A stretch of 10,107 nt of DNA. Source: a virus (lineage: Duplodnaviria; Heunggongvirae; Uroviricota; Caudoviricetes). The stretch lies in IMG/VR virus record IMGVR_UViG_2675903595_000003; one strand, written 5' to 3'. Position numbers and translations under genes: made by a program. Every line of letters begins with the position of its first letter. Within the stretch, counting starts at the first letter, position 1. The notes under the pieces were generated by a model that made no database searches, was not told the origin of the DNA, and was given only the letters and a program-made list of their open reading frames with translations. This document shows positions 6,933 to 10,107 of this stretch, one piece after another.

Positions 6933-8662
6933 GCCGGAAATCTTACCCCAACGTAAATGCTGCAAATCAGTATGCCCGGGATGTCGTGCGCGGAAAGATT
7001 GTTGCCTGCCAGTTTGTGATTCAGGCCTGCCAGCGCCATCTTGATGACCTGATGGCGGAAAAAAGTAAGTCGTTTCGTTACCGCTTCGACAAGGACCTGG
7101 CTGAACGGGCCGCGAAATTTATTCAGCTGTTGCCGCACACCAAGGGGGAGTGGGCATTCAAACGGATGCCCATCACGCTGGAGCCGTGGCAGCTATTTGT
7201 GATCTGCTGTGCGTTTGGCTGGGTCAATAAAGGCACCCGGTTGCGCCGCTTCCGGGAGGTGTACACCGAAATCCCCCGTAAGAACGGCAAATCAGCAATC
7301 TCTGCCGGTGTTGCCCTGTATTGTTTTGCCTGTGATAACGAGTTTGGCGCGGAAGTGTATTCCGGTGCCACGACAGAGAAACAGGCGTGGGAAGTCTTTC
7401 GCCCGGCGCGACTGATGTGTAAACGCACACCCATGCTGACGGAAGCGTTCGGGATTGAGGTTAACGCCTCAAACATGAACCGTCCGGAGGATGGCGCGCG
7501 GTTTGAACCGCTGATCGGCAACCCAGGTGATGGTTCATCACCCCACTGTGCCGTGGTTGATGAATATCACGAGCATGCCACCGATGCGCTTTATACCACA
7601 ATGCTTACCGGGATGGGGGCGCGACGTCAGCCACTGATGTGGGCCATCACCACCGCCGGGTACAACATTGAGGGGCCGTGCTACGACAAGCGGCGGGAAG
7701 TCATCGAGATGCTCAACGGCTCGGTGCCTAACGATGAACTGTTCGGGATCATCTATACCGTTGATGAAGGTGACGACTGGACCGGCCCGCAGGTGCTGGA
7801 AAAAGCCAATCCAAATATTGGCGTGTCGGTTTATCGCGAATTTTTGTTAAGTCAGCAGCAGCGTGCGAAAAATAACGCCCGTCTGGCAAACGTCTTTAAA
7901 ACAAAACACCTCAATATCTGGGTGTCGGCGCGTTCGGCGTATTTCAACTTGGTGAGCTGGCAGAGCTGCGAGGATAAATCACTGACCCTTGAGCAGTTCG
8001 AGGGGCAGCCGTGCATTCTGGCCTTTGACCTGGCGCGTAAGCTGGATATGAACAGCATGGCGCGACTTTATACCCGCGAGATTGACGGTAAAACGCATTA
8101 CTACAGTGTGGCCCCGCGTTTCTGGGTACCGTATGACACGGTGTACAGCGTCGAGAAAAATGAAGATCGACGGACAGCCGAACGCTTTCAGAAATGGGTG
8201 GAAATGGGCGTTCTGACCGTTACCGATGGTGCGGAGGTGGATTATCGCTACATCCTCGAGGAGGCCAAAGCGGCGAACAAAATCAGCCCGGTCAGTGAGT
8301 CACCCATCGACCCCTTCGGGGCGACCGGGTTGTCACATGACCTTGCTGATGAAGACCTGAATCCCGTCACTATCGTCCAGAACTTCACCAATATGTCCGA
8401 TCCGATGAAAGAGCTGGAAGCAGCGATTGAATCGGGACGTTTTCATCATGACGGCAATCCCATCATGACCTGGTGTATCGGCAACGTGGTCGGCAAAAAC
8501 ATGCCGGGTAACGATGATGTGGTGAAACCCGTCAAAGAGCAGGCGGAAAACAAAATCGATGGTGCAGTTGCGCTGATTATGGCGGTTGGCAGAGCCATGC
8601 TGTACGAGAAAGAAGACACGCTGTCTGACCACATTGAGTCCTACGGGATCCGCTCGCTTTAA
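6929..8662 (+). CDS. phage terminase large subunit (Terminase_1 / HK97-like)
   Basis: 577 aa. Walker A-like ([10 protein letters not shown]), Walker B (CAVVDEYHE), C-terminal nuclease-type region. Coupled to terS. Confidence 0.9.
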
Positions 8663-8673
8663 CTGAGGTAATT

Positions 8674-8856
8674 ATGATCATGCTGATTCTCGCGCCTCTG
8701 GTGGGCGTGCTGGGTGCGCTTTTGCTGGCGTATGGTGCCTGGCTGATTTATCCCCCGGCGGGTTTTGTTGTTGCCGGGGCGCTGTGCCTGTTCTGGTCGT
8801 GGCTGGTGGCGCGATATCTCGACCGTACACGGCAGTCTGTCGGCGGAGGTAAATAG
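8674..8856 (+). CDS. small hydrophobic membrane protein (two predicted TM helices), function unknown
   Basis: 60 aa ([60 protein letters not shown]). GAGGT at 8665-8669 precedes ATG 8674. Stop TAG 8854-8856 overlaps GTG 8856. Confidence 0.55.
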
Positions 8857-10012
8857 TGTTCTTTTCGGGATTATTTCAACGAAAAAGCGATGTGCCGGTG
8901 ACCACGCCAGCAGAACTGCTGATGCTATCGGGCTGTCATACGACACCTATACCGGAAAGCGGATCAGTAGCCAGCGGGCCATGCGCCTGACGGCGGTCTA
9001 TTCTTGCGTCAGGGTGCTGGCAGAGTCTGTTGGTATGCTGCCCTGCAGTCTCTACAAAATCAGCGGTACCCTGAAAACACGGGCGGTGGATGAACGACTG
9101 CATAAGTTGGTTTCGGCAAAACCTAATGGCTACATGACACCGCAGGAATTCTGGGAGCTGGTTATTGTCTGCCTGTGTCTACGGGGGAATTTTTACGCCT
9201 ACAAGGTAAAGGCACTGGGAGAAGTGGTGGAGCTTCTTCCGATAGATCCGGGCTGTGTGGAACCGAAGCTGAACAGCCAGTGGCAGCCGGTTTATCAGGT
9301 GACGTTTCCGGATGGTTCCGTGGATGTGTTGACCCAGAATGAAATCTGGCATGTGCGCACCCTGACGCTGGATGGACTTGTCGGGCTGAATCCCATTGCG
9401 TATGCGCGTGAGGCCATTTCACTGGCAGCGGCAACCGAGGAGCACGGTGCCAGGTTGTTTAGTAATGGTGCGGTGACATCCGGTGTGTTGCGTACGGAAC
9501 AAAAGCTCACGCCGGATGCTTACGAGCGTCTGAAGAAAGATTTTGAGGAGTGTCACACGGGGCTTGGCAATGCTCACCGCCCGATGATTCTGGAAATGGG
9601 GCTGGACTGGAAGTCGATGGCGCTGAACGCCGAGGACAGTCAGTTCCTGGAAACCCGCAAGTTTCAGCTGGAAGAAATCTGTCGTCTGTTCCGGGTGCCG
9701 TTGCACATGGTGCAGAACACCGATCGCGCCACCTTCAACAATATCGAAGAGCTGGGGCTGGGATTTATCAACTATTCACTGGTGCCGTATCTGACCCGCA
9801 TCGAACAGCGGATCAACACCGGACTGGTACGAAAAAGTAAGCAGGGCGTTTATTACGCCAAATTTAACGCCGGGGCGTTACTGCGCGGGGATATGAAGTC
9901 CCGTTTTGAAGCCTACGCCACCGGGATCAACTGGGGAATTTACTCTTCCAATGACTGCCGCGACCTGGAAGATATGAATCCGCGTCCCGGTGGTGTAATG
10001 CCGATCAGTTAA
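8856..10012 (+). CDS. phage portal protein, HK97 family; N-terminal frameshift (possible pseudogene or sequence error)
   Basis: The portal-like body (TAVYSCVRVLAESVGMLPCSLY ... to stop at 10010-10012) is in frame 2, which has no credible start: the supplied ORF begins at TTG 8765 inside the upstream gene and the first in-frame ATG is 8981. A frame-0 ORF starts at GTG 8856 (GGAGG at 8845-8849, coupled TAGTG) and encodes MFFSGLFQRKSDVPVTTPAELLMLSG... before stopping at 8988-8990. The frames must switch near 8920-8950. Confidence 0.8.
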
Positions 10013-10044
10013 GGATCAGTTGACCGATCCAGTGGCTGTGTAAG

Positions 10045-10081
10045 AATCCGGAAACGCTCACTTGTTTCCGGATTTTTTTAT
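10045..10081 (+). terminator. intrinsic terminator downstream of the portal gene
   Basis: Stem AATCCGGAAAC (10045-10055) / TTTCCGGATT (10065-10074), 9-nt loop, TTTTTTA. Confidence 0.7.
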
Positions 10082-10107
10082 GCACATTGGACAGGCTCTT
10101 GATCTGG

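Follow-up and report, generated by a model that had tools for sequence, protein, structure and literature searches.

A putative portal pseudogene with a one-base deletion and an IS4 insertion in a prophage remnant of Shigella sonnei

The portal gene at the right-hand end of the analysed stretch of DNA (10,107 nt, referred to as the window) is very probably a functionless pseudogene, which carries an inherited 1-bp deletion and was truncated by IS4 in a phiP27/ST64B/SfV-type prophage remnant (HK97-family head module) of Shigella sonnei. Translation from the native, ymfR-coupled GTG at 8856 runs out of the portal frame behind residue 21 and would stop at TGA 8988 with 44 residues made, and the remaining 359 portal codons have no start codon that is served by a ribosome-binding site. 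IS4 hits the gene a second time, after codon 380 (window 9996), with a 12-bp target duplication. On its left side the prophage is cut by an IS2-like element, and in S. sonnei chromosomes host sequence follows beyond IS4 (the bamE or the raiA side, depending on the strain). Both lesions probably predate the divergence of the sampled S. sonnei strains, and the 9.9-kb remnant is predicted to be unable to form particles. The two IS ends and the features of the portal region described below lie on the + strand.

Between the gene of the terminase large subunit and the portal gene, the window harbors a ymfR-like gene (8674..8856), a 60-codon ORF whose translation gives a small and hydrophobic membrane protein of 60 aa. 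Its homologues are annotated as 'protein YmfR' in E. coli prophages; the one in phiP27 goes by 'putative integral membrane protein L37'. The TAG stop of this gene (8854-8856) overlaps the portal GTG at 8856 by one base, and a GGAGG Shine-Dalgarno motif, read from the sequence and the same in intact homologues, is located at 8845..8849 with a spacing of 6 nt to the GTG. Translation of the ORF that begins there, together with alignment to intact portals, identifies 8856..8990 as the 5' fragment of the portal pseudogene. It comprises 44 codons and is closed by TGA at 8988-8990: codons 1-21 encode the authentic portal N-terminus, with 20 of the 21 residues the same as in intact portals, and the other 23 are out of frame. 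ORF 8765-10012, read in the -1 frame relative to GTG 8856, contains the portal body. In this frame no ATG, GTG or TTG occurs between 8772 and 8980, and ATG 8981 is the first start-type codon from 8772 on; ahead of it there are only three TTGs at 8765-8771, which lie deep within ymfR and have no ribosome-binding site. ATG 8981 is the equivalent of Met43 in intact portals and sits 7 nt ahead of the TGA that closes the 44-codon ORF (overlap region ATGCGCCTGA). A Shine-Dalgarno motif was sought at ATG 8981 and none was found. An earlier, sequence-only reading of this DNA had described an RBS-preceded ORF at GTG 8856 coupled to the upstream gene, its stop at 8988-8990 and a portal body in another frame without a usable start before 8981, all of which was borne out. 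The plausible portal N-terminus that it saw in this ORF is indeed portal-like; its length is 21 residues, not about 25.

To locate the lesion, the window was aligned at the nucleotide level with the two intact portal genes of E. coli A36 and ECZP248. The homologues read GAGCTGGCGGAT where the window has GAACT-GCTGAT, so that one G is lost at 8917..8918, and at the boundary of codons 21 and 22 the ancestral CTGGCT (Leu21-Ala22) contrasts with CTGCT in the window. A single-nucleotide indel had been proposed around 8920-8950; the kind of lesion proved right, whereas its position is 2-3 nt outside that interval, though inside the reported span of 8856-8990. The intact form CTGGCTGATGCT was found in an IMG/VR contig (L023) that is 94.8% identical, and its sequence CTGGCTGAT is exactly the intact sequence predicted. 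When one G is added to the window, the codons CTG GCT GAT GCT (LADA) are restored and a continuous frame of 380 codons extends up to 9995. The protein encoded by this repaired frame is 97% identical to that of phiP27: 370/380 codons encode the same residue, 68 codons differ synonymously and 10 non-synonymously, of which 7 and 2, respectively, fall among codons 1-42. Since synonymous changes outnumber non-synonymous ones in the comparison with phiP27, and since the HK97 portal aligns from residue 17 of the intact homologue, the N-terminal extension is read as coding and as under purifying selection until recently, and the segment upstream of Met43 belongs to the portal protein. The split of the portal over two frames is more than a chance arrangement, a judgement for which homology (the 20 matching N-terminal residues and the repaired frame) and not ORF length is the basis.

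Megablast against complete E. coli genomes detected the homologous segment in more than 1000 genomes. The best matches were about 93.5% identical and were labelled 'terminase large subunit | YmfR | phage portal protein'. In the two strains that were looked at, A36 and ECZP248, the portal has 413 aa and begins, according to the PGAP calls from which the E. coli starts were taken, at a GTG that overlaps the ymfR stop and corresponds to window 8856. Gene L38 of the Stx2e phage phiP27 has the same GTG start overlapping the ymfR stop. In tblastn searches of phage genomes, alignment of the 413-aa protein began at residue 1 in phiP27 (99.5% against the A36 allele), in the portals of ST64B, SfI, SfII and SfIV (about 88%) and also in more distant phages of Klebsiella, Yersinia, Pseudomonas, Vibrio and Burkholderia. 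The possibility, raised beforehand, that intact portals begin at the equivalent of ATG 8981 was thus not borne out, as the PGAP calls in E. coli, phiP27 L38 and the phage portals all start at the GTG. The closest intact relatives of the window portal are phiP27 and its E. coli prophage alleles.

The portal body (8919..9995, codons 22-380 of 413) was assigned by Pfam, NCBIfam and homology to the HK97 portal. In automatic gene calls it appears as a protein of 343 aa that starts at ATG 8981, and the whole Phage_portal domain of Pfam fits inside this ORF. PF04860 Phage_portal matched with E=1.7e-107 and 359.8 bits against a cut-off of 39.1, covering profile positions 2-321 of 321. NCBIfam TIGR01537 portal_HK97 matched the repaired translation with 263.7 bits against a cut-off of 112.05 (positions 3-343 of 343). 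When the intact E. coli A36 homologue was used as query, the solved HK97 portal 8cez/8fql was recovered with E=1.2e-53, aligned over query residues 17-387. In relatives, the order of terminase large subunit, portal, prohead protease and major capsid protein is kept. The window retains this context on one side only, with TerL and the ymfR-like gene upstream, but IS4 and host genes downstream. A single intact frame of about 413 aa is absent, owing to the 1-bp deletion at 8917/8918 and IS4 at 9996. The window portal is best regarded as a pseudogene derived from HK97-family portals and not as a functional member of the family.

IS4 constitutes a second, independent inactivation of the portal, a lesion that the sequence-only reading had not noticed. 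Homology to the portal ends at 9995, and the sequence from 9996 onward (TAATGCCGATCAGTTAAGG...) is the left end of IS4 (TAATGCCGATCAG...; 9996..10107), which is 99.6% identical to IS4 of E. coli and runs off the window. The insertion exchanges portal codons 381-413 (DVYLTPMNMTT...; the last 33 codons) for VMPIS and a stop at 10010-10012. Directly in front of it, GTCCCGGTGGTG (9984..9995) represents the left copy of a 12-bp target-site duplication, as these 12 bases recur behind the right end of IS4 in another IMG/VR contig, IMGVR_UViG_2663762996_000003 (L029). The terminal sequence of IS4 thus abuts its target, and the target is duplicated; target-site duplications of IS4 are 11-13 bp long.

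L029 (1-13286) is 99.88% identical to window 7552-9993 and carries the same 1-bp portal deletion. It also contains the right junction of the same IS4 insertion, which reads ...CTGGCATTA followed by GTCCCGGTGGTG and then ATGTCTATC.... The right-hand continuation of the portal begins after this GTCCCGGTGGTG duplication, and the remainder of the portal is followed by a protease-sized ORF, a capsid-sized ORF, connector/tail-sized ORFs and an ORF of 1081 aa. Among the contigs examined, only L029 harbors an IS4/portal right junction. A scan of viral contigs for the 3' remainder of the portal was unspecific (at least 120 contigs), and no such junction was present in the contigs from it that were inspected. 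This arrangement suggests that IS4 originally entered an already or subsequently frameshifted gene by simple transposition; the right half of the prophage would later have been lost from, or relocated within, S. sonnei via IS-mediated rearrangement. L029 also shows a near-duplicate of 386 nt (2433-2818 vs 4197-4582, 3 mismatches), an N at 2819 and an IS4 without its first 68 nt; it may in part be a mis-join of a draft assembly, or derive from a genome with two related prophages.

In S. sonnei chromosomes, no target-site duplication was found at the right flank of IS4, where the flank has been exchanged. The DNA after IS4 consists of host genes there, and the set differs by strain. A 1333-bp IS2-like element interrupts IS4 in Ss046-type strains, where bamE-recN-nadK-grpE follow; in other S. 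sonnei strains IS4 is intact and followed by raiA-pheL-pheA-tyrA-aroF. These strain differences indicate IS-mediated rearrangement at the locus within S. sonnei. The homologous region of protease, capsid and connector genes, used as BLAST query, gave no match in the S. sonnei loci.

On its left side the prophage remnant is truncated by a further IS element. Window positions 1..77 are the right end of a 1333-bp IS2-like element of the IS3 family, assigned by the Pfam domains HTH_Tnp_1 and rve on adjoining genes; its boundary was set by comparison with a second copy in the Ss046 locus. The locus (helicase, RusA, Q, tRNAs, lysis genes, HNH, TerS, TerL, ymfR and the truncated portal) thus represents a 9.9-kb prophage remnant between two IS elements. 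The GTG at 40, which starts the 510-aa helicase ORF (40-1572), lies inside the IS2-like end and is probably an artefact; in other annotations the DnaB-like helicase has 463 aa and begins at 181. A phage tRNA cluster at 3807-3990 comprises tRNA-Met(CAT) at 3807-3883, tRNA-Arg(TCT) at 3885-3961 and the start of a third tRNA that is cut by an N run. In Ss046 the cluster goes on with tRNA-Thr(TGT) and tRNA-Gly(TCC) (6988-7141 of L010). The window has two N runs, 3991-4453 (463 nt) and 5389-5741 (353 nt), whose lengths are not true to size, since Ss046 has 247 and 617 nt at these places. The second run covers most of the lysozyme gene and an Rz-like lysis gene. Long ORFs across the N runs on both strands (e.g. 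3920-4593, 5229-5861 and 5372-5923) are artefacts.

A sequencing or assembly error would mean that the real DNA carries the extra G and that the 5' part of the portal is in one frame with its body. The source assembly of the window has two N runs and the site is a GG dinucleotide, at which systematic error is conceivable in principle. Outside the N runs, however, the window is 100% identical to S. sonnei Ss046 (CP000038.1) and to several other S. sonnei chromosomes, and the 135 nt from 8856 to 8990 as well as the portal/IS4 junction are identical in 18/18 S. sonnei chromosome assemblies, which stem from a highly clonal species and provide evidence at the level of assemblies. Five further IMG/VR contigs are 100% identical and have the deleted form. 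The terminase protein of the window is indexed, in exactly this form, in 4305 blocks of the assembly collection, S. sonnei chromosomes including CP000038.1 among them, and the exact 343-aa product, which is called only with the broken frame, in 1695 blocks. In several assemblies (L016, L020, L021, L022) TerS/TerL, intact in the window, are called in at least two pieces or are shortened (e.g. 498 aa); these breaks look like private indels or long-read errors. As some assemblies (L016, L020, L022) have such private breaks while the portal site is constant, they can be treated as separate data sets, and identity across many assemblies from separate projects makes a systematic error at the GG very unlikely. 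The error reading was dropped on the grounds of the 18 identical independent assemblies, and its probability is considered negligible. A single continuous frame on resequencing, which had been named as evidence against a frameshift, is likewise contradicted by these assemblies. All of this points to a portal deletion that is real and inherited; given the clonality of S. sonnei, one ancestral event is documented and not recurrence. A scan of the genome-contig collection returned 0 matches to the site with or without the extra base; S. sonnei is probably not a species representative there.

Programmed -1 ribosomal frameshifting or transcriptional slippage could restore a full-length N-terminus: -1 is the direction required, the two frames overlap by 133 nt and an A5 run is located at 8882-8886. 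Against this, the check for a slippery sequence that had been recommended revealed no X_XXY_YYZ heptamer in frame within 8856-8990, and the homopolymers, limited to T4 (8862) and the A5 run (8882), were judged too short to slip efficiently. The intact homologues examined are all single-frame, so that recoding is not a trait of the family; moreover, the product would still have no C-terminus owing to IS4, and the partner head genes are absent. Recoding was dropped on account of the missing heptamer, the short runs and the single-frame homologues, and is given practically no chance. A second view, that there is no lesion, with a portal beginning at ATG 8981 and the 44-codon ORF being a separate small gene, agrees with the choice of the automatic gene callers and with a Phage_portal domain that lies wholly in the 343-aa ORF. 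It is opposed by the 413-aa portals of E. coli prophages, phiP27, ST64B, SfI, SfII and SfIV, in which residues 1-42 are conserved, by the 7 synonymous and 2 non-synonymous changes in codons 1-42, by the alignment of the solved HK97 portal from query residue 17, by the missing Shine-Dalgarno motif and by the one base that all intact relatives have and the window lacks. ATG 8981 was dropped as native start, and we regard it as extremely unlikely, since actual phages conserve the N-terminus, which also bears the mark of purifying selection. Slightly less improbable, and still very unlikely, is a truncated portal (residues 43-380 plus 5 IS4-encoded ones) that is made by termination-reinitiation at ATG 8981 and kept for a host function, possibly interference with the assembly of related superinfecting phages. 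ATG 8981 does overlap the end of the preceding ORF, around its stop (ATGCGCCTGA), the portal core domain is complete, and the 343-aa ORF is identical in the 18 assemblies and indexed in the 1695 blocks; yet such invariance is expected from clonal descent in a young species and is no evidence of selection, ATG 8981 is devoid of a Shine-Dalgarno motif, and two independent disruptive lesions are typical of decay. That the 343-aa core, produced by reinitiation after the 44-codon leader, is kept as a dominant-negative decoy poisoning SfV/phiP27-type head assembly is an extremely doubtful proposition.

The preferred reading, an inherited and doubly disrupted portal pseudogene, also bears on the fate of the prophage. 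The sequence-only reading had concluded that, with a real frameshift, a full-length portal is impossible and the prophage likely defective. The frameshift is real, and the prophage is defective regardless of it, owing to IS4 and to the absence of head and tail genes. The converse claim, that a sequencing error would leave the gene intact, did not hold: IS4 cuts the gene off at 9996, and the locus has no head and tail genes. Even with the frameshift repaired the portal would be non-functional, because IS4 removes the 3' end and the head genes are absent. A frameshift alone is thus a poor guide to the viability of a prophage, and the rest of the gene and the module need checking.

Existing annotations of the portal are inconsistent. 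The original Ss046 call is a protein of 414 aa from TTG 8768 (11840-13084 of L010, corresponding to window 8768-10012), which overlaps all of the 3' half of ymfR in a different frame; elsewhere the portal is annotated with 343 aa from ATG 8981, or with no protein. The 414-aa and 343-aa 'portal' calls are artefacts of the doubly disrupted pseudogene, and the proper annotation is one portal pseudogene, frameshifted and 3'-truncated by IS4. Beyond annotation hygiene the importance is small; nothing is novel about this ordinary case of Shigella genome decay. It nevertheless provides a clean example of the decay of a Shigella prophage by point indel, IS insertion and IS-mediated rearrangement. In a literature search for a specific description of this portal pseudogene none was found.

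Among known systems, a degraded portal in a cryptic prophage is also represented by the e14 prophage of E. coli K-12, in which the portal pseudogene beeE adjoins ymfR. It belongs to another lineage and probably has other lesions than the window portal. With phiP27 (L38, CAC83556.1) and the E. coli alleles (e.g. WP_240745495.1) the window shares the order of P27-family TerS, TerL, ymfR-like gene and portal. In comparison with phiP27, the window copy is short of one G at codon 21/22 and has lost codons 381-413 to IS4, and the protease, capsid and tail genes that follow the portal in phiP27 are absent from the locus. The Shigella/Salmonella temperate phages SfI, SfII, SfIV and ST64B likewise encode 413-aa HK97-family portals that are about 88% identical to the phiP27 type; theirs are intact genes of inducible phages, whereas the window copy is a doubly disrupted remnant. 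The HK97 gp3 portal (PDB 8cez / 8fql) displays clear sequence homology and belongs to the same Pfam and NCBIfam families, but is a distant relative only. On the side of the host, loss of gene function through frameshifting indels and through IS4 or IS2 is well documented as the usual course in Shigella. Hawkey et al. (2020, PMC7373316) found that IS1, IS2, IS4, IS600 and IS911 have expanded in Shigella, and that for 719 S. sonnei CDS (14%) one genome or more carries a version disabled by an IS, a nonsense mutation or a frameshifting indel. The portal was likewise hit by a frameshifting indel and by the expanded IS4, with an IS2-like element on the other side of the remnant, and is a typical example of the IS and indel pseudogenes of Shigella (PMC7373316).
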